A stretch of DNA of 40,349 nt from Candidatus Doudnabacteria bacterium RIFCSPHIGHO2_02_FULL_46_11 (GCA_001779955.1 MFES01000001.1:1-40349); one strand, 5' to 3'. Counted from the stretch's first letter, positions 8,167 to 40,220 are shown. Program-made: numbers and translations. The notes: a model not told the origin generated them from the sequence alone.

Positions 8167-8215
8167 AAAAAAAGACGAACCCGCCGCAACGAGGCGGCGG
8201 GTTCTTGTCTTTTTC
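8167..8215. terminator. Bidirectional intrinsic terminator between metK and island A
   Basis: AAAAAAA-GAC-GAACCCGCCGC-AACGAG-GCGGCGGGTTC-TTGTCTTTTT; 11-bp GC stem at 8177-8204 flanked by A-run and T-run. Confidence 0.8.
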
Positions 8216-8243
8216 CATTGCCTGGGGAGGTGAGGCTCGCGAG

Positions 8244-8792
8244 CTAGAGCGTCAGTTGCTCGTAAACCTCATGTTGGAAGCGTGCGTCAGTCCAGCGGAC
8301 AACCGGGTCGGAACCGGTGAATGCGATCCTCACCAAACCCAACCGGTCGAAGTCTCGAAGAACACTGCCGCGGATGTGGGAGCGTTCCGACTGGCTGGCT
8401 ACCAGACAGACGAACTTCGGTTCGGAAAGCTCCAAGATCCCAGCCGCGCGGTATTTGCGCATAGCCAGGAGCAGCATCCGGCCAGTCTTATGGCCTGCCT
8501 CGCGCGCCACAGCGGTCGCCATGGCCTTGAGACCCTTGTCCGCGGGGTGGTACATACCCTCATCAGTCTTGTAGATCGCCCCCATCTCCAGCAGCTGCTC
8601 AAGGCAGCGGGGGAGATTAAGGTCAACTACAGCCTGATGATCGTGAACGCGCGCTTCAACTTGATGAAGGTTGAGACCGGGGCAGGCGCAGATCTCCGTG
8701 AGCACTGCGCGGTAGTTCCTCCCTTTCTTGCCGGCGATATTGCGCGCCAGCCGCGGGGGGTTGCGTACCGGATGGCCGAGTTGCGACTTCAT
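8244..8792 (-). CDS. Island A: hypothetical protein, probably two tandem winged-helix DNA-binding domains
   Basis: GC-rich with third codon positions mostly G/C. ATG at 8792 is preceded by AGAGGAG; the track ORF begins at GTG 8798. Wing-like segments LEQLLEMGAIYKTDEGMYHP and LRDFDRLGLVRIAF. Confidence 0.6.
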   Translation of the reverse strand: MKSQLGHPVRNPPRLARNIAGKKGRNYRAVLTEICACPGLNLHQVEARVHDHQAVVDLNLPRCLEQLLEMGAIYKTDEGMYHPADKGLKAMATAVAREAGHKTGRMLLLAMRKYRAAGILELSEPKFVCLVASQSERSHIRGSVLRDFDRLGLVRIAFTGSDPVVRWTDARFQHEVYEQLTL

Positions 8793-8932
8793 TACCACAC
8801 TCCTCTGTTCGCGATGGTTTTTTGTAGCGCCGCTGAAGCGTTACATCAAACCTGTCTACGGCTGATGGAAAAGACCATCGAAACCTCCGTGTTTAGATGA
8901 ATAATACCGGCTTTTCGCCGTATATGACTTAA

Positions 8933-8961
8933 ATTCTATCATATAATGTACTAAATGGCAA
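8933..8961 (-). promoter_or_regulatory. Candidate sigma70 promoter for island A (TTGCCA-N17-TAGAAT)
   Basis: Read on the minus strand; leaves a roughly 130-nt leader before ATG 8792. Confidence 0.5.
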
Positions 8962-8981
8962 TATTTCGCTATATTTAAATA

Positions 8982-10454
8982 ATGATTCCGGAAAAGATAA
9001 AACTAATTTCCAAAGAGATTTCTAATAACGGCGGCTGTGCTTTTTTGGTAGGCGGTTCCGTGCGTGACCATTTGTTAAAATCTCCGGTTAAGGATTTTGA
9101 CGTTGAAGTCTACGGCTTAAAATTACCGGCCCTTAAAAAAATAGTAGGTAGGTATGGAAAAGCCAAAGAAGTAGGAAAAACTTTTGGCGTTATCAAAATT
9201 TTTACTAAAGAGGAGTTGGAGATTGATTTTTCCCTACCGCGCAAAGATATAAAAATTGCGCGAGGGCACCGCGGTTTTAAAATAACGACCGATCCGGCTT
9301 TAAATTACAAAAAAGCGCTGAAGAGACGAGATTTCACCATCAACAGTATTCTACTCGATCCGCTTACCGGAGAATTCATTGACCCTTTCAATGGCCGTGA
9401 AGATTTAAAAAAGAGAGTGCTTCGAGTAACCGATAAAACAACCTTTGCCGAGGACCCGCTGCGGGTGCTGCGGGCAATTCAACTGGTCGCCAGATATGAG
9501 CTAAAAATAGAGCCCCGAAGCAGAAAAATAATAAAGGCTGCGGCGCCGCGGCTGAAGGAATTGAGCAAAGACAGAATTTGGACGGAATGGAAAAAGTTGC
9601 TTTTAGCCCATAGACCGTCACTCGGGCTTGAGGCCGCCCGCGAACTCGGTTTAACCAAAACTTTTTATCCGATGCTTGCCGCCTTGGAAAAAACGCATGA
9701 AAACCCGGCCTGGCATCCGGAAAAAAATGTTTGGCAGCATTGCAAGCTGACGGCCGACCAGGCCGCTTTGATTGCGGCCACAGAAAAACTTAACCTGTTC
9801 GAATCAACACTGCTAGTCCTGGCCGGAATCTGCCATGATTTAGGAAAGCCCCTTACCAGCCGAATCGTAAATGGCGTCAGACGAACCATTGGCCACGCAA
9901 AGGCCGGAGAGAAACCGGCCCGTGAATTTCTTAAAGCCATTGGCGCGCCGAATATCTACTATAAAAAAATTCTCGGCCTGGTTTTATACCATATGCGGCC
10001 CTTATCCTGGTATCTGGGCAAAGAAGAATTCAGCAGCGCCGGCATCAGGCGGCTGGCGCGCGATTTGCACCCCTATGGCCTAACGTTCCGTGAACTTGCA
10101 CGCTTGAGCCTGGCAGACAATAGGGGACTGGGCGAATTCCCGCCCGCGCAAAGGCTAGAGAAAAAGAGAGAAAAAGAACGTTTCATTACCTTCCTAAAAA
10201 AATTGGAAAAAAGGGCGGCCAGCCTCCGTGTTCTTTCTGCACAGCCGAAGGCAGTCGTGAGCGGACGGGATTTGTTAAAACTGGGTTTTAAGCCAGGCCC
10301 GAATATAGGCGCGGCAATGCGGTTAGCCGAAGACTTGGGCGATTTGAACTTTAAAAAAACTGCTATACTTAAAAAAATGGGTAAAATTACCAGAGATAAT
10401 ACTGAAAAAAAAGTTATATTAAAGTTACAATCGCTGGTCAAGACCAGACAATAA
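8982..10454 (+). CDS. cca: CCA-adding tRNA nucleotidyltransferase with C-terminal HD domain
   Basis: 490 aa; GGSVRD..DFDVE, RRDFTINS, and HD-region HDLGKP. Confidence 0.85.
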   Translation: MIPEKIKLISKEISNNGGCAFLVGGSVRDHLLKSPVKDFDVEVYGLKLPALKKIVGRYGKAKEVGKTFGVIKIFTKEELEIDFSLPRKDIKIARGHRGFKITTDPALNYKKALKRRDFTINSILLDPLTGEFIDPFNGREDLKKRVLRVTDKTTFAEDPLRVLRAIQLVARYELKIEPRSRKIIKAAAPRLKELSKDRIWTEWKKLLLAHRPSLGLEAARELGLTKTFYPMLAALEKTHENPAWHPEKNVWQHCKLTADQAALIAATEKLNLFESTLLVLAGICHDLGKPLTSRIVNGVRRTIGHAKAGEKPAREFLKAIGAPNIYYKKILGLVLYHMRPLSWYLGKEEFSSAGIRRLARDLHPYGLTFRELARLSLADNRGLGEFPPAQRLEKKREKERFITFLKKLEKRAASLRVLSAQPKAVVSGRDLLKLGFKPGPNIGAAMRLAEDLGDLNFKKTAILKKMGKITRDNTEKKVILKLQSLVKTRQ

Positions 10455-10473
10455 CCATTAATTAAAAAAACCT

Positions 10474-11079
10474 ATGTTCGAACTCCCGAATTTGCCCTAT
10501 GAACTCAATGCGCTCGAACCCTTTATCGACGCGCAAACCATGGAAATCCACCACGGCAAGCACCATGCCGCCTACGTAAAAAAATTAAATGAGGCCCTAG
10601 AGGCCAAAAAAGATTTGCAGTCAAAATCGATTGAGGAAATTTTGCAATCGCTTGATTCTTTGCCGGAAGAGGTACGTACCAAGGTACGTAATAACGGCGG
10701 CGGGCATTATAACCATTCATTTTTTTGGCCTTTGATGAAACAGAATGGCGGAGGAGAACCAGCCGGCGATTTAGCCCAGGCTATAAACGACGCTTTTGGA
10801 AACTTCGCAGATTTCAAAATCAAATTTTCCGAAGCGGCCGCAAATCATTTTGGCAGCGGCTGGGCTTGGCTTACATTTGAGGATGGAAAGCTAACCATTT
10901 CAACTACGCCAAATCAGGATAGCCCTGTGATGCGCGGCATAAAACCGATCTTAGGCCTCGACGTTTGGGAGCACGCCTATTACCTCAAATATCAAAACAA
11001 ACGTCCTGACTATATAAATGCCTGGTGGAATGTAGTGAACTGGGAACAAGCCGAAGAAAACTACGCAAACGCCAAGTAA
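10474..11079 (+). CDS. sodA: Fe/Mn superoxide dismutase
   Basis: 201 aa; [45 protein letters not shown]. Confidence 0.9.
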
Positions 11080-11082
11080 TTC

Positions 11083-11117
11083 CAGGTCAGACCTATAGTT
11101 TGCCCAGGTCTGACCTG
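11083..11117. repeat. Hairpin CAGGTCAGACCT-N10-AGGTCTGACCTG, paralog of the 503-539 hairpin
   Basis: 12-bp stem 4 nt after the sod stop; stem sequence identical to the core of the hairpin at 503-539. Confidence 0.7.
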
Positions 11118-11182
11118 TATTAAACGCCCAACATAGTATTAAAAGCCGAAAGCCGCTTAACCATTTGCGGTTGATTTTTGAT

Positions 11183-11211
11183 TTGCATTAAATTTAAAAT
11201 AGTGCTATAAT
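11183..11211 (+). promoter_or_regulatory. Candidate promoter for island B (TTGCAT-N17-TATAAT)
   Basis: Read directly; followed by a 49-nt leader and SD AAGGGGG 4 nt before ATG 11261. Confidence 0.55.
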
Positions 11212-11260
11212 ATATATCATCCCAAAAGAGTACAGACCTCGGCCAAAAGAAGGGGGTAGG

Positions 11261-11593
11261 ATGAAGTTCCGCTCCACAGTACCGGAAGTGGCCATGGTGA
11301 GGGCGCTGTCGGCCGTTCTAGACTGCGACGTGACAATCACGATCGTCGGCGGGGTTGTCACGGTTTTCGCGGATACGAACCGCCGCACAGAACCATTCCA
11401 TCCGTGGCCAGTGCCCAAGGACGAGCTTCCGCTCTCGATGAGGCGCCGCTCCGTGAGTGGCGCGCTGCCTCGGCATCTGGTGAGCGAGATGCTCACAACG
11501 GCACTCGTGATACGCGCCATCAACGCTGGTGCTGTCCCTGAAGAAGTCGATGAGACCCAGTTGCTGCTCGACTGGGACAAAATCGACGAGTAG
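11261..11593 (+). CDS. Island B: hypothetical 110-aa protein
   Basis: GC-rich ORF; I read the codons and third positions are predominantly G/C. Has its own promoter, SD and terminator. No family recognised. Confidence 0.6.
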   Translation: MKFRSTVPEVAMVRALSAVLDCDVTITIVGGVVTVFADTNRRTEPFHPWPVPKDELPLSMRRRSVSGALPRHLVSEMLTTALVIRAINAGAVPEEVDETQLLLDWDKIDE

Positions 11594-11621
11594 CAAAGGA
11601 GGGTTACCTAAAGCAAGCGAA

Positions 11622-11655
11622 CCCCGCGCCAGATTTTTGTGGCGCGGGGAATGTG
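11622..11655 (+). terminator. Intrinsic terminator of island B
   Basis: CCCCGCGCC-AGATTTTTGT-GGCGCGGGG followed by AATGTGTTTT. Confidence 0.7.
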
Positions 11656-11720
11656 TTTTAAATAGACAAATACTCAAAAAATTGATACAATTTTTTTGGC
11701 AAAATTTTATGTTAATATTG

Positions 11721-11769
11721 TAGGATCGTCTAACGGTGGGACACGTGCCTCTGGAGCACAGAATCTTGG
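11721..11769 (+). pseudogene. Truncated 5' two-thirds copy of tRNA-Gln (no T-loop, no 3' acceptor strand)
   Basis: 11723-11769 matches 11795-11841 of the intact tRNA at 44 of 47 positions. One change breaks the anticodon stem (C:A). The acceptor 5' strand is not conserved. Confidence 0.7.
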
Positions 11770-11790
11770 CACGCCCCCACACCTTATCGC

Positions 11791-11864
11791 TCCGGGATCG
11801 TCTAACGGCAGGACATGTGCCTCTGGAGCACAGAATCTTGGTTCGAATCCAAGTCCCGGAACCA
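11791..11864 (+). tRNA. tRNA-Gln (anticodon CUG), CCA encoded
   Basis: Manual cloverleaf: acceptor TCCGGGA/TCCCGGA, D stem GTC/GAC, anticodon stem TGTGC/GCACA with loop CTCTGGA, T arm CTTGG-TTCGAAT-CCAAG, discriminator A plus CCA. Confidence 0.85.
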
Positions 11865-11892
11865 GAAAAGACGGCGTCTTTAGATAGCATCC

Positions 11893-12070
11893 TTTTTCTA
11901 TAGGCGACTTGGATTCGAACGGGAAGGGGGTTGGGGAAACGGTAGTTTCCCCGTGGTGGAAATACTAAAACCGCAAGGTTTTAGAAAGGCGGTCAATGAC
12001 CGCCGCGTGAGATTCCAGGTCCCGGAACCATTGGGTGTGAGGGTGAAAATCCATATCCCCCAGCCAAGAA
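11893..12070 (+). ncRNA. Candidate structured RNA of unknown class, built around a split tRNA-Gln T-arm/acceptor fragment
   Basis: CTTGGATTCGAA (11908-11919) and TCCAGGTCCCGGAACCA (12014-12030) match the tRNA-Gln 3' third. Between them lie 94 nt with three GC hairpins (11933-11952; 11967-11982 with a GCAA loop; 11988-12004). The unit ends at a strong terminator. Confidence 0.4.
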
Positions 12071-12100: not shown

Positions 12101-12117
12101 TGTTAAATTAAATAGTT

Positions 12118-12149
12118 TCGCCGCGCACCTAAAAATCGGTGCGCGGCGA
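12118..12149 (-). terminator. GC hairpin downstream of island C
   Basis: TCGCCGCGCACC-TAAAAATC-GGTGCGCGGCGA, 12-bp stem; the T-run on the minus strand is weak. Confidence 0.5.
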
Positions 12150-12199
12150 ATGCGAATCCGAATTCATCTCAGTTGTGGGTCCCGAGACGCTTCGTCCGA

Positions 12200-12457
12200 C
12201 TATCTGACCTCGGCTGAGCAGTTCCTCGCAGCGTACCGAGCGGCACAGAAACCCAGATACCGAGTAGTTCCGAGCGTGCGATCGTCCCTGTATGAAGAGT
12301 GGATCTGCCCTTCTTTGTAGCCCTCTGTCCACTCGGCACGACGCTGTTCGCCCTCCTCGACGCTCAAGCCGGGATACTTCGGACAAGTGAGAATATGCGG
12401 AGTCTCAATCTGATCCCGTACAACAGGGCGCCTGCAGAGTTCGCAGGTTTTTGGCAT
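12200..12457 (-). CDS. Island C: hypothetical 85-aa protein with N-terminal CxxC
   Basis: ATG preceded by GAAGGGGGG; MPKTCELCRRP...LTCPKYPG. The frame choice is uncertain, because an alternative frame 12129..12386 is also open. Confidence 0.4.
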   Translation of the reverse strand: MPKTCELCRRPVVRDQIETPHILTCPKYPGLSVEEGEQRRAEWTEGYKEGQIHSSYRDDRTLGTTRYLGFCAARYAARNCSAEVR

Positions 12458-12540
12458 TTGACCCCCCTTCGTTGTGAACTAGATACTAAAATAATGCCAC
12501 GCTTTTGGAGTGGTGTAAACATTCAATCCAAAAAGCCTTG

Positions 12541-16385: not shown

Positions 16386-16443
16386 AAAGCAATTACCGCC
16401 GACCAATGATCGACGGTAAAGGCCACACGGCCGGGTTGATGCG

Positions 16444-16653
16444 TCAGGTGGTGGCGACTACTGCCCGATCGGGGCGATTGTCATGCACGAGAGCATTCAG
16501 GCGCGCTTTCTCTGCCCTGAAGAACTCCCAGCAGTCAGCACAGTTACCGACATGCGCTTCAGCCGCTTGGCGGAGACCCGCAAATAGCGTCGGGCTGATG
16601 CTGGCGTTCATAATGACGTTGCGAACGTGGAGACAACCTGCCGCTTCTGCCAT
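16444..16653 (-). CDS. Island D: 70-aa protein with anti-sigma-factor-type zinc finger motif (H-x3-C-x2-C)
   Basis: ATG at 16653 preceded by GGAGGAAG (the track ORF starts earlier). AEAHVGNCADCWEFF fits the zf-HC2/ZAS pattern. GC-rich. Confidence 0.5.
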   Translation of the reverse strand: MAEAAGCLHVRNVIMNASISPTLFAGLRQAAEAHVGNCADCWEFFRAEKARLNALVHDNRPDRAVVATT

Positions 16654-16757
16654 ACTTCCTCCGATGTGTTGCGGGCAAAAATAAAGCACGCTAGGCGTGC
16701 CGCGGATGGTTCTTTATTTGTCGAAACAAGACCATATTAGATATAATTTAACTTATC

Positions 16758-18104
16758 ATGTTTAAAACGTCAAGAAAATCCGTAAAAACAAGGTTTGCCC
16801 CGTCGCCAACGGGTTTTTTGCACCTCGGCGGCTTGCGAACCGCGCTCTATGCCTATGTCTTTGCCAAACAGCACAAAGGCGAGTTCTTACTTCGCATAGA
16901 AGATACTGACCGGGCGCGATACGTGGCCGAGGCTGAAAAGAATATAAACGAGACCTTACAAACCTTTAATTTAGTGCCCGACCAGGAACCGGTGCGACAA
17001 TCCGACAGAATTGACGTTTATAAAAAATACGCCAATGAGCTTTTAGCTAAAAATTTAGCCTACGAAGATACAGGGGCCATCCGCTTTCGAATGCCAAAAA
17101 CCGGCACAACAAAGTTTAGCGACACTATCCGCGGCGAAATAGAAATAGAAAATAAAGACCAGGAAGATTTCGTCATTTTAAAGTCTGACGGCTACCCGAC
17201 ATACAATCTTGCCCACTTGATAGACGATTATGAAATGGGCATTACGCACGTCATTCGAGGCGAGGAGTTTATACCGTCTATGCCCAAGTATATCGCTCTT
17301 CATGAAGCGCTTGGTTGGCAGATCCCCGAATACGCTCATTTGCCATTGCTTTTGAACAAAAATCGCAGCAAACTATCGAAAAGGGAAGGCGACGTGGCGG
17401 TGGAAGATTACTTGAAAAAAGGTTATTTAAAAGAAGCAATATTGAACTTTGTGGCCCTTTTGGGCTGGCACCCGAGCCAATCAGAAAAAGAAATTTATAC
17501 GCTTCAAGAATTAATTCTAGAATTCAAGCTGGAGGACGTGCAAAAAGCCGGCGCAATTTTTGCCCTAGACAAGCTAAATTGGTTTCAGAAAGTTTGGATA
17601 ACTAAACTAAGCGATGAATCGAAAAATATAGCGAATCATCCGTTTTATCAAATAGTCAAGAGACACCTGCCCGAGGCTTCGGACAATTTTTTGGCCAGGC
17701 TGTGGCCACATTTAACCGAACGCCTGACTGCTCCCGAAAATTACGAAAAAGATTTGGATGAATTTAGCTTCTTTGTTAAGAAGCCGGATTTTGAAGCAAA
17801 ATTGTTGGTTTGGAAAAAATCGGACAAAGAAACGACCGGTGAAGTTTTGACAAAATTATTGGAATTTCTAAAACAACTACCCGATTATTTATGGGACAAG
17901 GAGGAACTCGAGAATAATGTCAAAAATTTTATTTCTGAAAATAATTGGGACAACGGCACCGTGCTTTGGCCGCTGCGCGTGGCACTTACCGGACGCGAAA
18001 AATCCATGGGTCCGTTTGAAATAATGGACATTTTAAATCAGACCGAGAATAGGGGAGTCGTTTTTGAAAGAATCGAAAAAGCCATAAGCATACTCACCCG
18101 GTAA
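16758..18104 (+). CDS. gltX: Glutamate--tRNA ligase
   Basis: 448 aa; RFAPSPTGFLHLGG (HIGH) and KLSKR (KMSKS). TATAAT at 16742-16747 lies 10 nt from the ATG. Confidence 0.9.
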   Translation: MFKTSRKSVKTRFAPSPTGFLHLGGLRTALYAYVFAKQHKGEFLLRIEDTDRARYVAEAEKNINETLQTFNLVPDQEPVRQSDRIDVYKKYANELLAKNLAYEDTGAIRFRMPKTGTTKFSDTIRGEIEIENKDQEDFVILKSDGYPTYNLAHLIDDYEMGITHVIRGEEFIPSMPKYIALHEALGWQIPEYAHLPLLLNKNRSKLSKREGDVAVEDYLKKGYLKEAILNFVALLGWHPSQSEKEIYTLQELILEFKLEDVQKAGAIFALDKLNWFQKVWITKLSDESKNIANHPFYQIVKRHLPEASDNFLARLWPHLTERLTAPENYEKDLDEFSFFVKKPDFEAKLLVWKKSDKETTGEVLTKLLEFLKQLPDYLWDKEELENNVKNFISENNWDNGTVLWPLRVALTGREKSMGPFEIMDILNQTENRGVVFERIEKAISILTR

Positions 18105-18162: not shown

Positions 18163-19476
18163 ATGTTCGAGGCTACAAGGGTGAAAATAAGAAACAAAAA
18201 AACTAAATTGAGGCAAACCATTTTAAAATCGGCCTTAGTCGTTTTTTTGTCATTAGCCCTTGCTTTGGCAAACAATATACCTCTGCCGGATGCCGGTGCG
18301 GCCACAATTGAACAAGAACTTCAGGCCAAACAGCAACGGTTAAAAGAACTTGAAAACCAAATTAGTCAAACCACCAAAGATATAAACTCATTGGTTAAAC
18401 AGCAGAATACCTTACAGAACTCAATTAAAATTTTTACGGCGCAGATAAGCCAGGTTACCACCCAGATTGTCGTTACGGAAACTAAAATCGAAATCGCGGG
18501 CGATAAAATCACCGAGCTTAACGGGCAAATTCGCATCAAAGAAAATGAGGTGGAAAGAGTCAAACAAAACCTGGCCAACCTGATACGGGAACTCTACCAG
18601 ATGGATAGGTCAGACTCAACCATTATGGCCTTAATGAATAACGACAACCTTTCAGATTTCATTAACGCGGTTTCCCAAATAGAAAACGTACATGGCCGAA
18701 GCTATGAACTGCTCCAGGATATTAAGGAGCTAAAAGTACAGCTTGAAGACAACCGCGCGGAGGTGCAGGAGCAAAAAAAAGAGCTTGAGCAGTTTGAAAT
18801 CGCCCTTACGGACCAGAAAAATCTGCTTGATAACCAAGTAAAGGCAAAGAATGATTTATTGGTTAAAACCAAAAATCAGGAAAGTATCTACCAGGCATTG
18901 CTGGCGCAAAACAAGAACGAAGAGGATAAAATACAGCAGGAAATTCAAGATTTAGAGAATAAAATCCGGGTACAGCTTGGTGAGCGTACTTCACCGGGCA
19001 AAAAAGGTTTATTTAAAATTTGGCCGATGAACGGCACCTTGACCCAAGGCTACGGCAACACAGGTTTCCGTTCGCTTGGCTATTCGTTCCATAACGGTTT
19101 AGACATTGCCGCCGCAGCCGGCACGCCAATTTATAACGTTTACGACGGCACGGTTAACGGCACAGGTTCAAGCGATAAGGCTTACGGCAACTGGGCCACG
19201 GTCAGGTATGAATTGCCAAACGGCCGCTGCGTGGTAGCCCTTTATGCCCATATGCTTAAGCGGAGCGTAAGCGACGGCCAAAGCCTGAAGGGCGGAGCGG
19301 TGATCGGTACCGAGGGCAACACCGGCAATACCACACGTTTGCTTTACGGACCGCATCGCGGTTTTCACCTGCATTTTACCGTATTTGACTGTGAAGGATT
19401 CCAAATTGTAAAAAGCGTAAACGGAAACTACATGGTGCCAGTTGGGTATACCTATAACCCCAACGATTTCCTGTAA
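18163..19476 (+). CDS. M23 family metallopeptidase with long N-terminal coiled coil
   Basis: 437 aa; signal/TM, Q/E/K-rich coiled coil, then HNGLDIAAAAGTPIYNVYDGTV...ALYAHM...GNTG. TTACAA-N17-TATAAT (18125-18153) lies 9 nt from the ATG. Confidence 0.85.
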   Translation: MFEATRVKIRNKKTKLRQTILKSALVVFLSLALALANNIPLPDAGAATIEQELQAKQQRLKELENQISQTTKDINSLVKQQNTLQNSIKIFTAQISQVTTQIVVTETKIEIAGDKITELNGQIRIKENEVERVKQNLANLIRELYQMDRSDSTIMALMNNDNLSDFINAVSQIENVHGRSYELLQDIKELKVQLEDNRAEVQEQKKELEQFEIALTDQKNLLDNQVKAKNDLLVKTKNQESIYQALLAQNKNEEDKIQQEIQDLENKIRVQLGERTSPGKKGLFKIWPMNGTLTQGYGNTGFRSLGYSFHNGLDIAAAAGTPIYNVYDGTVNGTGSSDKAYGNWATVRYELPNGRCVVALYAHMLKRSVSDGQSLKGGAVIGTEGNTGNTTRLLYGPHRGFHLHFTVFDCEGFQIVKSVNGNYMVPVGYTYNPNDFL

Positions 19477-21419
19477 ACCCCTCCCCGCGGCAAGACCGCG
19501 GGGCATTCGCGCGAGGCGTTGTAAATTTTATAGTACCTTGCAAAAACATAATAAGTGCGCCCCGTCATCAGGGCGCACTCATTCTTTATGCGTTCAGAAG
19601 CCTCCTTCAACCCAAGTAAAACTACTACTCGAATTTTACGCCCTTCTCCCCGGAGCAAATGCGGCGGATAAGCGCCGCAAAAACGAGGCAGTTGCACTGC
19701 ACGATCGAGAAGTTCAGCAGGCCTGGCACTCACTTCGAGGTAAAACCCGATCAGCCTGTTCAAGGCCGAAAGCAGCTCATCGCCGGCAATGTCCCGAGCA
19801 GCCTCTGCTGGCCGTTCCTCGCCCGACCTGGCCTCCCCAAGCAGTTCAGGGGGCTCTGGATTATGCGGGTGCATGGGCCCGCGGGGTCGAGTGGCTGTTA
19901 TGGCCGGCCGCCATGACTTTTGCTCAGGGGTCAGCAGGCCATTGAAGCGGAAGACCCGCAAAATGAATGACTTCAAGGACCCCGTAAACTCCTCACCAAA
20001 CACCTGACTCGCTTCAACATACAGCGCGCGTCGGTCCACCGGCGGGCTTCCTGACTCGAGACGCTCCTTGACCCACCTGCGCAGCCTCTCATCTCCCGTC
20101 TGTGCGTCTGTCGTCTGTTGTCTGTCGGCCCTAGGGGCTTGTCGCGGAGCCGGAGCAGGATGCCACTTGCGCTGCTCGGATGTGAGTAAATCGTTACCCG
20201 CGAATGCCCGATAGACGAACGAAGGGAAGCTGCCTACGGAATCAGTACCGTAAACATGCAGGGCTTCCGCGTAAAGATCCTTGCGACTCGCGGGTGGATC
20301 AGCTGATTCCAGTCGGTTTTTGACCCAAAGCTGCAAGAGGCTGACCTCGGCGGTCCGCCACGTAGTTTGTATTGAACCGACCCATGCCCTCTGTTCAGGC
20401 GTGAGTAGCTCATTATGAACGAAACAGTACTGGCTGAAGGACGCAAAGTTCGCCGCATATTCCGGGAACTTAGCTTGCGCCTCGATGTACAGCGCCCTTC
20501 GGTTCGCCGGCGGTATATCTGACTCGAGACGCTCCTTGACCCATGGCCTTAGCTCGCCCCTTGAGCCGGACAGATCGATGTCTCGGGACACGACAGGCGT
20601 CACAGCCTGCCGCGTTTCTGCGGGTTCTGGACATTCACGCGGGACGTCTTCTGATACAGGGGCGATATGTGCCTCGCTCGGCCGTGCATCGGCAGCATTG
20701 CCATTCTGCGACTGTAATACCGAACCCGCAATAAACTCCTGCATGGCCTGAAGGACAGCTGGCGAAGAATGACCATGGAGGTTGAGGCCGCGCGCACCGG
20801 CCAAATACAGCATAGGCCCGTAGTGGCTATCCCAAGCCTGCCAAGCCCTGGAACGCGTCCTTTGAGGGGATTCCCCCCGATGATCGTCAGCATGGCGCTG
20901 GAGTTCGAGAAACTCCACGAGGAACTCAAGCGGGACCATGTCATCGCCAGATTCTCGGCTAGCAATACTTCTCACGGCCGCCAAAAGATCGCGGATTTCC
21001 TTACTGATGAGGTGGACTTCAACGGTCAGACCTTGCGGATTTCCAGCTCGGCCGCCAAACCGCACCATATGGCTGATGCGGCCATCCGGCAAATCGCCCA
21101 GAGCTTCGCCGACGCTATCGTCTGCGGGGCCCACCGTTTCGCGCGGAATGACGATTACCCCCGAATGGCTAGCATTTGGCTTGACTACCCACACTGAGAA
21201 TTTGCCCTCATCGAGCGAAAAGGCCTTGTATTTCCGAGGAAAAATGCTGCCATGCTGAATGACCAAGCCGCCTGTCTCGAGAGCCAGCCAGTCCAGACAG
21301 CCAGGCAGGCCCAGGTGAGGGAAACGATCCTGCAGCTTCTCTACGTATAGCCGCAAATCGCAGTTGAACACCGCGGCCAAATAAGCCGCGACTCCTTGTT
21401 TGTAATTGCTCTGCTTCAT
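19452..21419 (-). CDS. Island E: 655-aa hypothetical protein with three tandem ~57-aa repeat modules
   Basis: Uninterrupted GC-rich ORF; ATG 21419 preceded by TGAGGTG (the track starts at TTG 21431). Repeats at aa 294-350, 365-423 and 450-507 of the track numbering. No family recognised. Confidence 0.7.
   Translation of the reverse strand: MKQSNYKQGVAAYLAAVFNCDLRLYVEKLQDRFPHLGLPGCLDWLALETGGLVIQHGSIFPRKYKAFSLDEGKFSVWVVKPNASHSGVIVIPRETVGPADDSVGEALGDLPDGRISHMVRFGGRAGNPQGLTVEVHLISKEIRDLLAAVRSIASRESGDDMVPLEFLVEFLELQRHADDHRGESPQRTRSRAWQAWDSHYGPMLYLAGARGLNLHGHSSPAVLQAMQEFIAGSVLQSQNGNAADARPSEAHIAPVSEDVPRECPEPAETRQAVTPVVSRDIDLSGSRGELRPWVKERLESDIPPANRRALYIEAQAKFPEYAANFASFSQYCFVHNELLTPEQRAWVGSIQTTWRTAEVSLLQLWVKNRLESADPPASRKDLYAEALHVYGTDSVGSFPSFVYRAFAGNDLLTSEQRKWHPAPAPRQAPRADRQQTTDAQTGDERLRRWVKERLESGSPPVDRRALYVEASQVFGEEFTGSLKSFILRVFRFNGLLTPEQKSWRPAITATRPRGPMHPHNPEPPELLGEARSGEERPAEAARDIAGDELLSALNRLIGFYLEVSARPAELLDRAVQLPRFCGAYPPHLLRGEGRKIRVVVLLGLKEASERIKNECALMTGRTYYVFARYYKIYNASRECPAVLPRGGVYRKSLGL
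19476..19516. repeat. Left copy of a 41-bp inverted repeat (partner at 25685-25725)
   Basis: AACCCCTCCCCGCGGCAAGACCGCGGGGCATTCGCGCGAGG; 40 of 41 identical to the reverse complement of the partner. Contains the hairpin CCCCGCGG-CAAGA-CCGCGGGG and starts on the last base of the M23 stop codon. Confidence 0.85.
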
Positions 21420-21558
21420 TTGGCACCTCAACTTATGGGGGAAAAGTAGGGATATTCAATTGGAAAGGAACTGCTTGCAGGTAGTATATCCAAACCTTCT
21501 GGAATGAGAAAGAGAAGTTCAATATAACGATAATGCAGGACCCAAGGCGGTTTTTAGT

Positions 21559-21587
21559 TTGACATTTTTTTTATTAATATGTATAAT
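21559..21587 (+). promoter_or_regulatory. Consensus sigma70 promoter for island F (TTGACA-N17-TATAAT)
   Basis: Exact hexamers at 21559-21564 and 21582-21587; SD AAGGAGG at 21606-21612; ATG at 21617. Confidence 0.7.
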
Positions 21588-21616
21588 GAATTTCTACCCA
21601 ACGGCAAGGAGGCCGA

Positions 21617-21952
21617 ATGGAAGAACGCAACATCGCCAGTTTCGACACTTACGCGAAGGTGATCAATGCCGACGGCAGCCTTCGTGTCGCGACCAAGCGC
21701 CATCTGATCCGCCGGGCCAGGACGATCGCCCAAGCCAGCGGCGGCACCCTCACATCAGTGCAAATGCTGCGGGTCTGCGGGGACACCGAGGAGGGACGTG
21801 AGCGTGTCACCCAGGTCTTGGCTCAGGCTGTTCTGAATGAGGCCGGGAGCCACACCATGGCCGAGGATTTCACCGGTTACGGGACGCTGGTCGGAAGCAC
21901 GAGGTCGAGACAGAAAACCGGCCACCGTCAGCGACGGAACATGGGCGCGTAG
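21617..21952 (+). CDS. Island F: hypothetical 111-aa protein, divergent partner of island E
   Basis: GC-rich ORF with consensus promoter, SD and terminator; basic C-terminal tail RSRQKTGHRQRRN. No family recognised. Confidence 0.6.
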   Translation: MEERNIASFDTYAKVINADGSLRVATKRHLIRRARTIAQASGGTLTSVQMLRVCGDTEEGRERVTQVLAQAVLNEAGSHTMAEDFTGYGTLVGSTRSRQKTGHRQRRNMGA

Positions 21953-22010
21953 CCCTAACAGGCGAGTGCGGCTGACCGCTAAACGCGGGACAGAGCGCGC
22001 GTCTGCATGA

Positions 22011-22056
22011 AAACGACCCGGTTGAACACCACGCCGGGTCGTTTCGTATTTCTTTT
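22011..22056 (+). terminator. Intrinsic terminator of island F
   Basis: AAACGACCCGG-N12-CCGGGTCGTTT followed by CGTATTTCTTTT. Confidence 0.75.
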
Positions 22057-22195: not shown

Positions 22196-23158
22196 TTAAC
22201 TTTTCATATCGCGTCCGCCATGAAATTTTTCATGAACATCGCGCAGGCGCTTGTTGGTAATATGGGTATAGACTTGTGTAGTAGCCACGTTCTTGTGTCC
22301 CAATAATTCCTGTATGCTCCGCAAATCAGCGCCATGGGCGAGTAAATCAGTGGCATAAGAATGGCGGAAAGTATGAGGCGTCACTTTTTTAGAAAGCCCG
22401 GCCAGCCTGGCGCATTTGGATACCATAACCTGAATTGAGCGGGCGGATAATCTGTTCTCGTCATCTTTTGATTTTAAGCTAATAAACAAAGCTTTGGCCA
22501 AACTATAATGGCGCGCCGCTAAATATCGACGAAGCCATTGGGCCGCCCGGGGCGAGATAAAAATCGTTCGTACTTGTCTGCCCTTGCCAACAATGGAAAG
22601 CTCGTAAGTTTTATCGGTTTTTTTGTCGCTCAACATTGACATCTGATCAACATTTAATGACACCAGTTCCGAAATACGCAAGCCTGACGAAAAAAATAAT
22701 TCCAAAATGGCGCGATCCCGCAATCCTTTAAATGTATCAGTATCAAAGATGCTTAACATTTTTTCCACATCACTGGCTTCCAAAAAAGAAATATTATCGT
22801 CAGACTTTTGTTTAGCCAACTTTACCTTGGAAGAGGGAAGTGAGTCTATATCCCTGTCCGCAAAGTAATTCAGTAAGGCGCGCAAGGCTATCAAGTAGTA
22901 GTTTTGTGATTTTTTACTTAAAAAGCCACCTTTGGGATTTTGATACTTGCGCGCAATATATAAGCGATAGTCCCAAAGATGCTTAGTGGTAAATTCATGC
23001 GGAAATAATTTTTCCTGACCCACGATTTTTAACCAGCCCGTAAAAAGGCGAAGGTACTGATTATAGTTTCTCTGCGTATTATTAGACAAACCTTTCTCAA
23101 CTTCACAGTAATCAAGAAAGGGGAGAATATGCTCTGAAATAGGAATACCGTTCTTCAT
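22196..23158 (-). CDS. Tyrosine site-specific recombinase, XerC/XerD-like
   Basis: 320 aa; N-terminal SAM-like core-binding domain, catalytic region RDRAILELFFSSGLRISE, HTFRHSYATDLL, LLGHKNVATTQVYTH. Backbone-like AT-rich composition. Confidence 0.85.
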   Translation of the reverse strand: MKNGIPISEHILPFLDYCEVEKGLSNNTQRNYNQYLRLFTGWLKIVGQEKLFPHEFTTKHLWDYRLYIARKYQNPKGGFLSKKSQNYYLIALRALLNYFADRDIDSLPSSKVKLAKQKSDDNISFLEASDVEKMLSIFDTDTFKGLRDRAILELFFSSGLRISELVSLNVDQMSMLSDKKTDKTYELSIVGKGRQVRTIFISPRAAQWLRRYLAARHYSLAKALFISLKSKDDENRLSARSIQVMVSKCARLAGLSKKVTPHTFRHSYATDLLAHGADLRSIQELLGHKNVATTQVYTHITNKRLRDVHEKFHGGRDMKS

Positions 23159-25674: not shown

Positions 25675-25684
25675 ACTTACAATA

Positions 25685-33812: not shown

Positions 33813-33874
33813 CATCGCTTCCACAGTTTAACATGCCTATAAAAACAAAAAAACCCCACATTTAGGGTTATTGG

Positions 33875-33907
33875 AAATGGCCCAACCGGAATTCGGCTGG
33901 GCCATTT
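33875..33907 (-). terminator. Hairpin terminator downstream of island G
   Basis: AAATGGCCCAACCG-GAAT-TCGGCTGGGCCATTT. On the minus strand a second small hairpin and a T-run (GGGGTTTTTTTGTTTTT) follow. Confidence 0.6.
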
Positions 33908-33926
33908 TCTTACGGGGCGTTGCGGG

Positions 33927-34259
33927 CTAGCGAGCGAAAGTAGGGTCGTATTTCCGCCTGATCCACTCGCTACGCATGGCAGCTGCTTGCTGGCGATTTC
34001 TCACCAGCTCGTCAAAAGCACGCTGCATATTCGCACAAATACCTGCTGACCTCGGTACTGACCGAGGAGGCGAGGAAATCTGTGTTTGCCTGCGGGCTGG
34101 ACCGCTGGCTACGACACGGGTCGGTTGAACCAACTCCTCGTAAACCAGACCCGATACTTCCCGTCGTACCCGGGATTGCATTAACCCTCCACGTAAAATG
34201 TAACCTTGAATGTTCAGCATCGGCGCCGAACAAAACAATCTGGCGCCTCCGCCAACCAT
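33927..34259 (-). CDS. Island G: hypothetical 110-aa protein (coding status uncertain)
   Basis: Consensus promoter, roughly 70-nt leader, GGGGGG SD-like tract 4 nt before ATG 34259. Third-position GC bias is only moderate by my reading, and a second frame (34012..34272) is also open. Confidence 0.4.
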   Translation of the reverse strand: MVGGGARLFCSAPMLNIQGYILRGGLMQSRVRREVSGLVYEELVQPTRVVASGPARRQTQISSPPRSVPRSAGICANMQRAFDELVRNRQQAAAMRSEWIRRKYDPTFAR

Positions 34260-34336
34260 AGGTCCCCCCCAAGGGCCTATGTCACGCCCTCACCACGAGG
34301 AACGCACAAATGCACGAAGGCACCATTACTGTGTAT

Positions 34337-34365
34337 ATTATACACCTAAAAAGGGATTTTGTCAA
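34337..34365 (-). promoter_or_regulatory. Consensus sigma70 promoter for island G (TTGACA-N17-TATAAT) with overlapping palindrome
   Basis: Minus strand: TTGACA at 34365-34360, TATAAT at 34342-34337. The inverted repeat AAAAGGGATT/AATCCCCTTTT (34349-34374) is centred on the -35 box. Confidence 0.7.
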
Positions 34366-37414: not shown

Positions 37415-37514
37415 ATAGTCAATTTTTCAATTCACAATTTTCAATTTTCAATTAATTATTCAATTGAGAAATTAAGAAATTGTTTAGAAATTAATAATTA
37501 GAAATTCAATAGAC
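37415..37514. repeat. AT-rich intergenic repeat, copy 1 (downstream of rplK)
   Basis: Shares a core of roughly 72 nt, TTTCAATTC(A/G)CAATTTTCAATTTTCAATTAATTATTCAATTGAGAAATTAAGAAATTGTTTAGAAATTA, with 37941-38053. Confidence 0.85.
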
Positions 37515-37940: not shown

Positions 37941-38053
37941 ACAAATAAATTTTCAATTCGCAATTTTCAATTTTCAATTAATTATTCAATTGAGAAATTA
38001 AGAAATTGTTTAGAAATTAGAAATTAATAATTAGAAATTAATAATTAGAAATT
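37941..38053. repeat. AT-rich intergenic repeat, copy 2 (downstream of nusG), with extra GAAATTAATAATTA units
   Basis: Direct comparison with 37415-37514: one mismatch in the core, and a different number of terminal short tandem units. Confidence 0.85.
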
Positions 38054-38599: not shown

Positions 38600-38783
38600 A
38601 ATTTACAACTGGGGTGGGAAACTTCCGTTTCCCCCTCCCACCTACAGCGCCTTGGGGCTCCAAAGGGTTGCCGGAGGCAACAACTTCTCGCTGCAAGGTT
38701 CCGCCGAAGGCGGGTTCTTACCCCCTTCCTCTATACGCTCGGACTGGCATAGCCAGATCCTCGCTGGGATAACTGAAAGTTTA
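38600..38783 (-). repeat. GC-rich leader repeat, copy N (upstream of nusG), with a 74-nt extra insert
   Basis: Hairpin 1 at 38613-38642 and hairpin 2 at 38737-38764 match copy R. Insert 38646-38719 carries hairpins GTTGCC-GGA-GGCAAC and CCGCC-GAA-GGCGG. Confidence 0.75.
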
Positions 38784-39338: not shown

Positions 39339-39339
39339 T

Positions 39340-39522: not shown

Positions 39523-39547
39523 AGTCTCGATTCTAATCCCAGTAGTA

Positions 39548-39735
39548 GTCCGCCCTGGGCGGACACTGCGGGACATATATGCTAATTGATACCAATGATA
39601 CTAATGTAGTGCTAATGCCGCTAATATGGTTTCATTCGAATGTTATTCGTATCATTAGCACGCATTCGTATATTGGTATCGCGTCCCCAAGTAATCTTGG
39701 CTTTTTTAAAAGGCCTTCGCGGGCCTTCTTTTTTA
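39548..39735 (-). promoter_or_regulatory. Structured region upstream of secE: GC hairpin, roughly 93-nt imperfect palindrome, two terminator-like hairpins
   Basis: GTCCGCC-CTG-GGCGGAC (39548-39564). Long palindrome 39588-39680 centred on CATTCGAATG. CCAAG-TAAT-CTTGG plus T6 (39687-39707). AAGGCC-TTCGCG-GGCCTT flanked by A and T runs (39706-39735). Confidence 0.5.
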
Positions 39736-39742
39736 TACCCGG

Positions 39743-39771
39743 ATTATAGCAGTACTTTGCCGTCTTTGCAA
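39743..39771 (-). promoter_or_regulatory. Candidate minus-strand promoter (TTGCAA-N17-TATAAT) feeding the secE leader
   Basis: Minus strand: TTGCAA at 39771-39766 and TATAAT at 39748-39743. Confidence 0.45.
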
Positions 39772-39798
39772 GCCCAAAAGCAATTTTAGCGGGGTATA

Positions 39799-39827
39799 TT
39801 GACAAAACTATAAAAAAGGAGTATAAT
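39799..39827 (+). promoter_or_regulatory. Consensus sigma70 promoter for island H (TTGACA-N17-TATAAT)
   Basis: Exact hexamers at 39799-39804 and 39822-39827; SD AGGAGG 8 nt before ATG 39881. Confidence 0.7.
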
Positions 39828-39880
39828 ATAAGATAAGTGCTGTGGCGGTCACGGCACGACTCGGCCAGGAGGATTTTCTT

Positions 39881-40156
39881 ATGAAAACTCGTTCGCGTAT
39901 CGCCCTGCGCATCCAGGCGTATCTGCTCTGGTCACGGTGGGCAACACAAACACGGCGTCTGGTCGTCCGCGCCTGGCGTGGCGTTCTCGACAATCCGTTC
40001 GAGTTCGCCTACTGCGAGATCATCGCGGTCGGTGGTCTCTTCATTCTCGGGGCGCAAGGCGGCGTGACAGTATTCGATATACTCTTCGGAATACTGGCTG
40101 CGATCCTCTTGCCGCCTTTCGTTCTTATGGGACGAAACCAGCGACCGACCCTGTGA
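39881..40156 (+). CDS. Island H: 91-aa small membrane protein, arginine-rich N-terminus
   Basis: Start moved to ATG 39881. MKTRSRIALRIQAYLLWSRW.. followed by hydrophobic IIAVGGLFILGAQGGVTVFDILFGILAAILLPPFVL. GC-rich. Confidence 0.55.
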   Translation: MKTRSRIALRIQAYLLWSRWATQTRRLVVRAWRGVLDNPFEFAYCEIIAVGGLFILGAQGGVTVFDILFGILAAILLPPFVLMGRNQRPTL

Positions 40157-40172
40157 ACAGCGTCAGTAGCAA

Positions 40173-40220
40173 AGCGGCGGTAGCCCACTTGGGTTGCCGC
40201 CGCTGTTTCATTTCTTTTTA
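40173..40220 (+). terminator. Intrinsic terminator of island H
   Basis: AGCGGCGG-N16-CCGCCGCT followed by GTTTCATTTCTTTTT. Confidence 0.7.

Follow-up and report, generated by a model that had tools for sequence, protein, structure and literature searches.

Single-gene G+C-rich islands of probable foreign origin between housekeeping genes of a Candidatus Doudnabacteria genome

In a stretch of 40,349 nt from Candidatus Doudnabacteria bacterium RIFCSPHIGHO2_02_FULL_46_11 (GCA_001779955.1 MFES01000001.1:1-40349), here called the window, short G+C-rich segments lie between housekeeping genes, which raises the question of what these segments are and how they came to be there. The organism is a groundwater member of the CPR with an ultra-small genome. 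An initial annotation described eight cassettes (A-H) in gaps between intact housekeeping genes, and offered as explanations repeated acquisition of foreign genes fitted with host-type signals, one dispersed accessory system, or a chimeric or engineered sequence. The location is confirmed and the coordinates agree to within about 30 bp. The number eight holds for the genes, with one ORF per island, but not for the loci, which are seven since E and F are one divergent pair. We prefer the reading, with a probability of about 0.6, that the islands are protein-coding genes gained by horizontal transfer in seven separate intergenic insertions, of which the E/F pair is one.

The eight islands sum to 4,966 bp with 58.4% GC, compared with 44.8% in the remaining 35.4 kb. 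Taken one by one they have 56.0-62.5% GC, or z = 2.3-3.7 against 300-bp backbone windows (mean 45.0%, sd 4.7%), but GC alone is an imperfect separator because some backbone genes locally reach 55-57% (for instance 32551-32850). By strand-symmetric dinucleotide distance (delta*), islands and backbone are 0.184 apart, whereas 5-kb backbone chunks differ from the whole backbone by 0.036 on average and 0.057 at most, and the backbones of the window and its relative L182 by merely 0.030. Single islands are at 0.15-0.21 from the backbone and at 0.03-0.10 from each other; their composition is at the foreign level and alike among them. GC3 is 0.53-0.77 in the island ORFs and 0.29-0.57 in backbone genes, CTG and CTC make up 66% and 23% of the leucine codons, and arginine/lysine contents are 10.2/2.7% and 5.3/8.5%, respectively. 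The islands are shifted from the backbone in GC3, codon choice and arginine/lysine usage, and the mostly G/C third codon positions claimed for A and B are borne out by GC3 values of 0.72 and 0.74. Past the right end of the window, after about 4 kb, comes a ninth such island.

The transcription signals were also largely as first described. The exact promoter TTGACA-N17-TATAAT occurs at three sites in the window, 21559(+), 34365(-) and 39799(+), where shuffles give an expectation of 0.01. Judged by these counts, chance cannot account for the three consensus promoters, and all appear placed to drive island genes (F, G and H). The promoters proposed for A and B were found again, and C, D and E have only weak sites that match at just 9 of 12 positions. 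The strongest terminators in the window flank islands: the longest G+C-rich hairpins with a T-run are, in both scans, those at A, B, C, D, E and H, and the hairpins of F and G show up in RNA folds.

The translation starts separate the two gene classes. A purine- or G-rich SD-like box at -4 to -16 precedes all eight island genes, as had been claimed, but only 6 of 38 backbone genes (Fisher p = 1e-5); with a strict GGAG/GAGG/AGGA box the counts are 5/8 and 6/38 (p = 0.013). On the other hand, a -10-like box ending 3-14 nt 5' of the start codon is found in 9/38 backbone genes, which look leaderless as noted earlier, and in none of the islands. The ninth island and the GC-rich extra genes of relatives are SD-led by the same rule, and genes of native composition without assigned function have no SD. 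The claim that the genes were fitted with host-type signals therefore stands for the sigma70-type promoters, which are host-compatible, but not for the SD-led starts, because the backbone looks largely SD-less and partly leaderless. The island SD boxes look like donor-type signals brought in with the genes. Loss of the anti-SD has been documented for part of Parcubacteria (PMC9297842), and the island boxes may be inert if this organism lacks it.

Island A (8177..8961, minus strand) has the promoter TTGCCA-N17-TAGAAT at 8961-8933, a leader of about 134 nt, the SD GAGGAG and a coding sequence of 60.5% GC at 8792-8244 for an orphan of 182 aa (ORF length P = 0.0065 against shuffles); the two-way hairpin terminator at 8177-8204 is common to A and metK. 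Our guess for its product is a DNA-binding protein. Island B (11182..11649, plus strand) is led by a promoter at 11182-11211, readable as TTGCAT-N17-TATAAT or as TTTGCA-N18-TATAAT with an extended TG, and has the SD AAGGGGG, a 110-aa orphan at 11261-11593 (a hypothetical protein in NCBI record OGE86617) and a hairpin terminator at 11622-11649. Island C (12117..12519, minus strand) would be transcribed from a weak promoter at 12519-12491 or by read-through from fmt; it has the SD AAGGGGGG, a coding sequence of 57% GC at 12457-12200 for 85 aa with an N-terminal CxxC, and a 13-bp terminator hairpin at 12150-12117. In G (33873..34365, minus strand) the consensus promoter at 34365-34337 is followed by a structured leader, a 110-aa coding sequence at 34259-33927 (ORF length P = 0.028, GC3 just 0.53) with an alternative start at 34181 that has a better SD, GGAGGG, and gives 84 aa, and a 14-bp hairpin at 33909-33873. 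Island H (39799..40204, plus strand) has its consensus promoter at 39799-39827, the SD AGGAGG, a coding sequence for 91 aa at 39881-40156 (NCBI record OGE86647; GC1/2/3 = 0.63/0.47/0.65) and a 14-bp terminator hairpin at 40173-40204. With its hydrophobic C-terminal half, the product may be a small membrane protein.

E and F form a single 2.6-kb divergent pair with a common AT-rich promoter region of 197 bp. Island F (21559..22045, plus strand) has the consensus promoter at 21559-21587, the SD AAGGAGG, an orphan of 111 aa at 21617-21952 with the highest GC3 (0.77) and a hairpin terminator at about 22010-22045. Island E (19452..21510, minus strand) has a weak promoter at 21510-21483 and the SD GAGGTG. 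It was rightly recognised as a GC-rich gene, but it does not end at the hairpin (19583-19550): there is no in-frame stop before the hairpin, which lies within the ORF tail, and the coding sequence of 655 aa (21419-19452; ORF length P = 0.0005) continues past the end of the GC-rich portion near 19641. Three internal repeats of about 62 aa, from residues 290, 362 and 446, differ by pS = 0.60-0.91 and pN = 0.34-0.38, with dN/dS about 0.37 where computable; the synonymous sites are saturated and the protein level is conserved. E is an old protein under protein-level constraint. One guess is that F and E are a regulator and a large protein. Adjoining F is a gene of native composition (22196..23158, minus strand, 41.5% GC, no SD) for an Xer-type tyrosine recombinase, which scores 224/221 bits against the XerC/XerD models, under the equivalog cut-offs.

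Island D (16393..16773, minus strand) has a weak promoter at 16773-16745, a terminator-like leader hairpin at 16701-16685, the SD GGAGGAAG, a coding sequence at 16653-16444 and a terminator at 16419-16393. The protein of 69 aa is named a zinc-finger domain protein in UniRef and matches nothing in Pfam even at E = 10. Its ligands, C7...H34-x3-C38-x2-C41, have the pattern and spacing of what we take to be the ZAS-type anti-sigma zinc motif (zf-HC2; RsrA/ChrR type), and the small size also fits, although the resemblance is confined to this short motif and D, unlike a ZAS anti-sigma gene, adjoins wecG and gltX and no sigma-factor gene. The product may, at a guess, be a small Zn-binding ZAS-like regulator.

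The initial annotation recognised no family for B, C, E, F, G or H, and the searches agree. For the seven smaller proteins (A, B, C, D, F, G and H), a full HMMER scan of 1.84e9 representatives gave no match but the query itself, and so did a word-indexed search of 5.8e9 proteins for E. E has no match in Pfam, PHROG, PADLOC, NCBIfam, PDB or phage, plasmid and IMG/VR collections, and searches of the last three with the island proteins gave no donor and no homolog; Pfam scans of ten alternative-frame ORFs were equally negative. Compared mutually the eight proteins are unrelated. The islands have no flanking repeats in common, no target-site duplications or shared terminal repeats were found at their edges, and most adjoin no dedicated mobility gene. 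Since none of the eight proteins yielded a donor or homolog, the case for transfer is built solely on composition and slot polymorphism.

This polymorphism is seen in syntenic relatives with 62-64% identical GltX and the same gene order from Sod to PrfB; about 63% GltX identity is as near as any genome in the collections comes. Between wecG and gltX, where the window has D, L182 has a GC-rich, SD-led DUF4112 gene (PF13430, E = 6e-18; 64-71% GC) and L184 an empty slot of 108 bp. The slot between the M23 and aminotransferase genes contains E, F and xer in the window; all three are missing from L182, which has a HAD hydrolase gene of native GC instead. The third slot lies 3' of tRNA-Gln(CTG) (11791-11864, plus strand), which in the window is followed by island C and accompanied, within 11723..12030, by att-like scars on the same strand (0.03 expected): its 5' part is repeated over 47 nt at 11723-11769 (94%), and its 3' end (GGTCCCGGAACCA) at 12018-12030. 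Past the same tRNA gene, L182 has a GC-rich island beginning after about 140 bp with an SD-led orphan of 346 aa (58-66% GC), and L184 has just 81 bp to fmt.

Textbook-perfect promoters, SD boxes and hairpin terminators about compositionally alien ORFs appear designed, and might point to an assembly chimera or a synthetic construct. We give this almost no credence, and it is refuted as far as public data go: islands and junctions recur at 99.8-100% identity in independent contigs from at least 10 environmental samples and three pipelines, with ENA MEGAHIT assemblies, ANAN16 Rifle scaffolds, JGI assemblies and Logan assemblies of raw SRA runs as sources, the sequence was deposited as the MAG RIFCSPHIGHO2_02_FULL_46_11, and like islands are present in related wild genomes. 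The organism's public contigs are uniformly clonal. It is very improbable, too, that some or all small islands are structured RNA genes with ORFs as by-products of high G+C, although such genes are conspicuous in AT-richer genomes and a GC-rich promoter-to-terminator unit adjoining fmt in another CPR contig (L119) is clearly structured (z = -8.3) and has no ORF. Coding sequences of A, B, G and H have folding z-scores of -3.2, -4.5, -3.9 and -3.2, but backbone coding segments reach -3.8, so these values are unexceptional, and those of C, D, E and F lie close to 0; Rfam gave no match even at E <= 1. In each island the longest sense ORF fills most of the promoter-to-terminator interval, with the SD-like box correctly spaced before its ATG, and the pattern GC3 > GC1 > GC2 is found in A, B, C, F and H. 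ORF length by itself fails to reach significance for D, F and H (P = 0.11-0.26), but the Fisher-combined P is 3.5e-6, and 2.7e-4 without E. The earlier view that the islands are coding has strong support for E, support for the set taken jointly, and weak support for D, F and H alone; on these signals, the islands are most sensibly read as protein-coding.

A different history, in which the islands are old, very fast-evolving residents of the lineage with a GC-rich, SD-led style that is functionally kept, for example as a separate translation or expression class in a mostly leaderless genome, would account for the missing homologs. It agrees with the long protein-level history of E and with the SD on all GC-rich extras in all genomes examined. 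Furthermore, small D-like proteins are found 5' of gltX in L188 and L189, with matching strand, position and Cys/His ligands (C...H-x3/4-C-x2-C), about 26% identity and a neighbouring GltX that is 62-64% identical. In statistical terms this match is fragile (E = 0.009 pairwise and 0.43 when 865 ORFs are searched), and the look-alikes would fit an old fast-evolving resident and repeated replacement equally well. We nevertheless hold residence to be unlikely: a resident gene should drift to the host mutational equilibrium, yet delta* is at the foreign level, the D slot is empty or filled with an unrelated gene in relatives, and related genomes offer no positional counterpart to the seven proteins besides D. 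Still more doubtful is one scattered accessory system, for instance in defence or host interaction. Composition, single-gene architecture and strong promoters are common to the islands, E/F could be regulator and effector, and the set has a putative Zn-binding regulator (D) and a membrane protein (H). Known multi-gene systems are, however, normally operon-clustered, and here the proteins are unrelated, no repeats are shared, GC3 is heterogeneous, L182 fills the same slots with other genes and PADLOC, Pfam, NCBIfam and PHROGs gave no matches with any island protein. There is no co-occurrence to detect, because no island protein has a detectable homolog in any other genome.

Repeated acquisition is the best supported of the three initial explanations, through dinucleotides, codon usage and slots that are filled, otherwise filled or empty in relatives, and it has parallels in known systems. 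Genomic islets are horizontally transferred genes concentrated at hot spots between conserved core genes; the islands resemble them in atypical composition and codon usage, position between syntenic core genes, cargo mostly without known function, variable slots and one slot beside a tRNA gene with att-like partial duplications. Unlike these, they are almost all single genes, with no integrase, transposase or repeat boundary tied to them, and their G+C content exceeds that of the host, while classic studies usually found orphan genes to be A+T-richer. Phage morons are extra prophage genes with their own promoter and terminator, and are likewise single, often orphan genes of deviating composition amid unrelated conserved genes; the islands, however, lie among chromosomal housekeeping genes, and no phage genes were found in the window. 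Integron cassettes are promoterless units with attC sites, in tandem arrays beside an integron integrase. The islands share with them the single-gene form, the foreign composition, the lack of known function and, at F, a neighbouring tyrosine recombinase, but they are dispersed, have their own promoter and terminator and no common attC-like repeat, and the recombinase scores best as XerC/XerD.

For horizontal acquisition we infer direction, source and number of transfers, as well as expression and all functions. Each island would be a self-sufficient transcription unit started by a sigma70-type promoter, its transcript a G+C-rich body in which a short leader and a donor-style SD precede one ORF, closed by a strong intrinsic terminator that would insulate the adjoining core genes. 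The units may have entered recombination-prone slots between core genes, the tRNA-Gln flank included, probably at different times; under the concept of amelioration, the GC3 spread of 0.53-0.77 fits acquisitions differing in age or donor. Their source would be a G+C-rich, SD-using gene pool without representation in public protein data, most plausibly accessory genes carried by mobile elements or by a partner organism of high GC. What would further set these islands apart from the genomic islets described above is the recipient, an ultra-small CPR genome of mostly SD-less genes in which the imports would keep their foreign start style.

The window forms part of a metagenomic contig of 121 kb (ENA ERZ4903055 k141_3472948), which comes from a CPR/Patescibacteria organism in Rifle aquifer groundwater. 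The backbone around the islands holds a closely packed series of housekeeping genes, labelled by Pfam as metK, cca, sodA, fmt, def, tmk, wecG, gltX, an M23 peptidase and xer, together with genes for ribosomal proteins, prfB, ftsEX, thyX, dut, dcd, nusG and secE. The eight GC-rich stretches claimed in the initial annotation (islands A-H, one ORF each, with E and F as a divergent pair) are all recovered in a sliding GC profile. Pooled, they have 58.4% GC compared with 44.8% in the rest of the window. The strand-symmetric dinucleotide signature separates islands from backbone by a delta* of 0.184; for 5-kb pieces of backbone measured against the entire backbone, the average is 0.036 and no piece exceeds 0.057. 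GC3 is 0.53-0.77 in the island ORFs and 0.29-0.57 in backbone genes, CTG and CTC make up 66% of the leucine codons in islands compared with 23% in the backbone, and arginine/lysine contents are 10.2/2.7% and 5.3/8.5% respectively; the choice of arginine codons differs as well. The islands deviate from the host in composition, codon usage and oligonucleotide signature alike, as horizontal islets do, and the compositional part of the original claim is confirmed far beyond chance.

Alien-looking DNA makes up about 12% of the 40-kb region, which is roughly one orphan gene per 5 kb. A crude scan found a larger fraction of GC-outlier segments in just one of 110 comparison loci. A ninth GC-rich (61%) orphan gene led by a Shine-Dalgarno (SD) box lies just past the right end of the window (contig L179, 3750-4500); it encodes 205 amino acids with N-terminal hydrophobic segments and has a GC3 of 0.76. 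This gene adjoins an intein-containing gyrB (L179, 4716-8198).

The suspicion that the sequence might be engineered or chimeric has been refuted. The same genes and junctions are found at 99.8-100% identity in several ENA assemblies, in ANAN16 Rifle scaffolds, in JGI assemblies and in Logan assemblies made from raw SRA runs. Because identical junctions recur in these separate contigs, a construct is ruled out, and a chimera is ruled out as far as public data go. The public contigs of the organism are all clonal with only a handful of SNPs, and population dN/dS was for this reason set aside as a test of constraint.

Exact TTGACA-N17-TATAAT promoters occur three times in 40 kb, where 0.01 are expected, and all three are directed into islands, namely F, G and H as had been claimed. 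The near-consensus promoters of A and B are also present as described. Only weak candidates were found for C, D and E, and C may be transcribed by read-through from fmt. GC hairpin terminators had been noted for every island; in both terminator scans, A, B, C, D, E and H have at their flanks the longest hairpins of high G+C content with a trailing T-run, and the hairpins of F and G are visible in folds. Judged from their sequence, the consensus promoters would give strong expression, and the terminators would plausibly shield the tightly packed core genes from read-through. A terminator-like hairpin with a T-run is also present at 16685-16701 (minus strand), between the candidate promoter and the SD box of D; it may act as an attenuator, unless the promoter of D has been called wrongly.

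Translation signals differ sharply between islands and backbone. A purine- or G-rich SD-like box at -4 to -16 precedes all eight island ORFs, in agreement with the earlier observation, compared with six of 38 backbone genes (Fisher p = 1e-5). A -10-like box ending 3-14 nt upstream of the start codon, which had been described for native genes lacking an SD, is found in 9 of 38 backbone genes and in no island gene; most backbone genes have no SD. Examples of such leaderless-type starts are found at 14308, 16758, 18163 and 36150. The pattern suggests that leaderless or near-leaderless mRNAs are widespread in the Doudnabacterium host. The anti-SD motif has been lost in part of the Parcubacteria according to a published survey (PMC9297842). 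The idea that foreign genes had been fitted with host-type signals needs correction on this point, since the translation signals of the islands appear to be of the donor type and not of the host type.

Several other repeated sequences were seen in the backbone. Native terminator hairpins with the common sequence CAGGTCAGACC...GGTCTGACCTG follow the H+-PPase gene (503-538) and sodA (11083-11118) and form a small family distinct from the island terminators. A hairpin GGGGAAACGG(A/T)AGTTTCCCC recurs at about 11935-11957 near tRNA-Gln, at 36900-36922 near the start of the L1 gene (37021) and at 38610-38635 just upstream of nusG, and may be a regulatory RNA motif. An AT-rich direct repeat of 98 nt with 90% identity (37409-37506 and 37935-38032) spans the start and upstream region of the L11 gene and of a DUF5671-like gene and appears to be a duplicated promoter/5' region.

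The islands had been read as coding sequence rather than structured RNA, and this is supported for the set, most firmly for E. Among 2,000 dinucleotide shuffles, none has an ORF nearly as long as that of E (P = 0.0005). E appears to encode an N-terminal region of about 250 amino acids and, after it, three helical repeats with about 62 residues each, between which pS is 0.60-0.91 and pN 0.34-0.38. Because synonymous divergence between the repeats is far above non-synonymous divergence, E is beyond doubt a gene that has long evolved under protein-level selection in its frame. The seven small ORFs reach P = 0.0065-0.26 singly in the length test and 2.7e-4 combined (3.5e-6 together with E). We accept them as coding sequences because of this combined value, the correctly placed SD and ATG and the pattern of codon-position GC, with GC3 > GC1 > GC2 in A, B, C, F and H. 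Taken one by one, D, F and H carry the most doubt; none of them is significant in the length test. The predicted H protein has a hydrophobic C-terminal half.

A structured-RNA reading of the islands was considered and rejected. Rfam covariance models run over the window matched tRNA-Gln only, whether at gathering scores or with the cut-off relaxed to E <= 1. Folding z-scores are -3.2 to -4.5 for A, B, G and H and near 0 for C, D, E and F, compared with values down to -3.8 in backbone coding segments, so that the islands overlap the backbone range or slightly exceed it. A unit of another kind was seen in a different CPR contig (L119, 10955-11535, minus strand), where Fmt is 42% identical and about 550 nt of GC-rich DNA directly follow fmt. 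This unit reaches 61% GC in 300-bp windows compared with a contig median of 40%, and is equipped with a promoter (TTGACA-N17-TATACT) and a hairpin terminator. With a folding z of -8.3 and neither a convincing ORF nor an Rfam match, it probably represents a structured RNA not described before.

The end of island E is irregular. The GC-rich DNA stops near 19641, where TAA and TAGTAG are found in two other frames (19627-19641). The E frame stays open for 60 further codons through a hairpin (19550-19583) and a 52-nt repeat and ends at 19452, which is 25 nt inside the convergent M23 gene. Either the original end was lost by truncation at insertion or by a frameshift, or the mRNA terminates before the stop codon. 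A gene for the ribosome-rescue factor ArfC (25725-26096) is located about 6 kb from this end. The 52-nt sequence is one arm of an inverted repeat (19473-19524 and 25677-25728, 92% complementary) which holds a hairpin CCCCGCGG-caaga-CCGCGGGG and brackets E, F, xer, the aminotransferase and M10. It was considered as a pair of transposon or island ends, and this was dropped since the start of each copy coincides with the stop codon of a convergent gene (M23 peptidase, plus strand; ArfC, minus strand). It is probably a repeated 3'-flank element, REP-like or regulatory.

Database searches gave no relatives of the island proteins. HMMER with the seven small proteins concatenated as query, run over the full set of 1.84 billion representatives (standing for about 15 billion proteins), recovered all seven and nothing else; at this size a match needs by our estimate roughly 40 bits, and very remote relatives of 70-110-residue proteins escape. 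Protein E likewise matched only itself in a word-indexed search of 5.8 billion proteins, and neither search contained a homolog of any of the eight at E <= 1e-3. Islands A-H had no match in Pfam, PHROGs, PADLOC, NCBIfam or PDB sequences, in line with the initial annotation, which recognised no family for B, C, E, F, G or H. With PADLOC at E <= 0.1 the eight proteins hit 0 families of known anti-phage defence systems, and Pfam gave nothing for ten alternative-frame or antisense ORFs. AlphaFold2 run without an alignment gave a pLDDT of 42 for A and 39 for E, too poor for a fold search. No match pointing to the origin of the islands was obtained from phage genomes, plasmids or IMG/VR, and neither a donor lineage nor homologs with incongruent phylogeny were found in the protein, phage, plasmid and IMG/VR collections. 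In the literature searched, no description of GC-rich orphan islets in CPR genomes was found.

Comparison with related genomes shows that the intergenic slots vary in content. Scans of GTDB representatives with the CCA enzyme and of JGI metagenomes with Fmt gave no relative above 44-46% identity; a search with GltX, the sole source of useful relatives, gave genomes at 59-64% GltX identity. One of these, L182 (GCA_964609765.1), has the gene order of the window between sodA and prfB, and the backbone signatures of the two hardly differ (delta* 0.030). Slot content differs or is absent in L182 and a second syntenic relative, L184, at the three slots that their contigs cover (wecG|gltX, tRNA-Gln|fmt and M23|aminotransferase); the slots of A, B, G and H lie outside these contigs. 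Between wecG and gltX the window has island D, and L182 has a segment of 64-71% GC in which a DUF4112 gene (PF13430, E = 6e-18), the only member of a widespread family among the islands, is accompanied by an SD and a hairpin terminator. L184 has only 108 bp here, within which lie the terminator of wecG and a leaderless promoter for gltX. In the L182 segment (9449-9922, minus strand) the SD is followed by a 13-codon ORF ending in TAA, and only further along does the ORF with the Pfam match begin; the DUF4112 gene is apparently interrupted near its 5' end and may be a decaying import.

The tRNA-Gln genes of the window and L182 are 96% identical. After the tRNA come att-like scars and island C in the window, and an SD-led orphan of 346 amino acids with 58-66% GC in L182; in L184 the tRNA is just 81 bp from fmt. 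Between M23 and the aminotransferase the window has E, F and xer, and L182 has a HAD hydrolase of native composition. Contigs L185, L188 and L189 have their own GC-rich, SD-led small genes adjoining gltX; genes of unknown function with native composition have no SD. Possible signs of mobility are seen at tRNA-Gln and in an Xer-type recombinase beside F. The tRNA-Gln gene (11791-11864) has a 47-nt copy of its own 5' part at 11723-11769 (94%) and a copy of its 3' end (GGTCCCGGAACCA) at 12018-12030, 166 nt downstream, where 0.03 are expected by chance. These partial copies resemble the scars that integration or excision would leave. None of the islands has repeats at its borders.

For island D, acquisition is open to another reading. 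Its predicted protein has the ligand pattern of ZAS-type anti-sigma factors (zf-HC2), C7...H34-x3-C38-x2-C41, which corresponds to H-x3-C-x2-C with an upstream Cys/His ligand about 26 residues earlier. Weak look-alikes are found at the same position in L188 and L189, with 26% identity and the same ligands, and C7, H34, C38 and C41 fall among the eight invariant columns of the alignment. Given these look-alikes, D could be an old, fast-evolving resident of the slot, or could have been replaced repeatedly by distant homologs. D has no match in Pfam or NCBIfam, the zf-HC2 family model included, even at E = 10, and no cognate ECF sigma-factor gene is located beside it (the neighbours are wecG and gltX) or elsewhere in the gene list of the window. 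Three separately assembled contigs of one species (L186, L187 and L188, GltX 64% identical to that of the window) break at the same point, inside a GC-rich ZAS-like gene upstream of gltX, which hints at strain-level variation at this slot.

Of the three explanations originally offered for the islands, repeated acquisition of foreign genes is best supported, with the correction concerning translation signals. The process would be a repeated horizontal acquisition of single self-sufficient genes into intergenic hot spots of a conserved backbone, from a G+C-rich, SD-using source pool absent from databases. We regard this as the simplest account at a probability of about 0.6, a value held down because no donor was found, most islands lack mobility scars and D has look-alikes in two relatives. 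The spread in GC3 of 0.53-0.77 suggests different ages or donors. The history of E would be older than its arrival, because its repeats are deeply diverged, and the DUF4112 island of L182 shows that ordinary bacterial genes enter by the same route. The explanation by one dispersed accessory system has nothing in its favour beyond the shared style of the islands, and neither relatedness among the eight proteins nor boundary repeats common to the islands were found. An integron cassette array would have attC sites, promoterless tandem cassettes and an integron integrase, whereas the islands are dispersed, have their own promoters and share no repeat; the recombinase in the window scores 224 bits on the XerC model and 96 bits on the integron-integrase model. 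Phage morons or prophage cargo differ as well, since the islands are flanked by housekeeping genes and lack matches in PHROGs, phage genomes and IMG/VR.

Horizontally acquired orphan islets at hot spots are already known, and the present ones are unusually clean and dense and are located in an unusual recipient. They reveal no new molecular machine; a known evolutionary process is seen here in unusually tidy form. An extended version, which we consider improbable, is that slots in CPR bacteria of the Doudnabacteria type are repeatedly reloaded with minimal promoter-SD-ORF-terminator cassettes from a G+C-rich, SD-using pool outside the approximately 15 billion public proteins, for example DNA of a host organism or its mobile elements captured by DNA uptake. 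If so, gene flux in episymbionts would include a distinct mode of its own, the composition of the islands would be a fingerprint of a partner organism, and the encoded proteins would be candidates for factors in host interaction.

The genomes of CPR bacteria are reduced to about 1 Mb, and little has been established about how these organisms live and with which partners. The islands suggest that a streamlined episymbiont keeps receiving genes on a substantial scale from an unsequenced or unrecognised pool. The natural contrast within one genome between native genes that are SD-less or leaderless and imported genes that are SD-led should be useful for studies of translation initiation in CPR. 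The proteins of A-H are expressed-looking orphans and candidates for lineage-specific interaction or regulatory factors. The islands as a whole are of interest mainly for CPR biology and for the search for the source gene pool or host.
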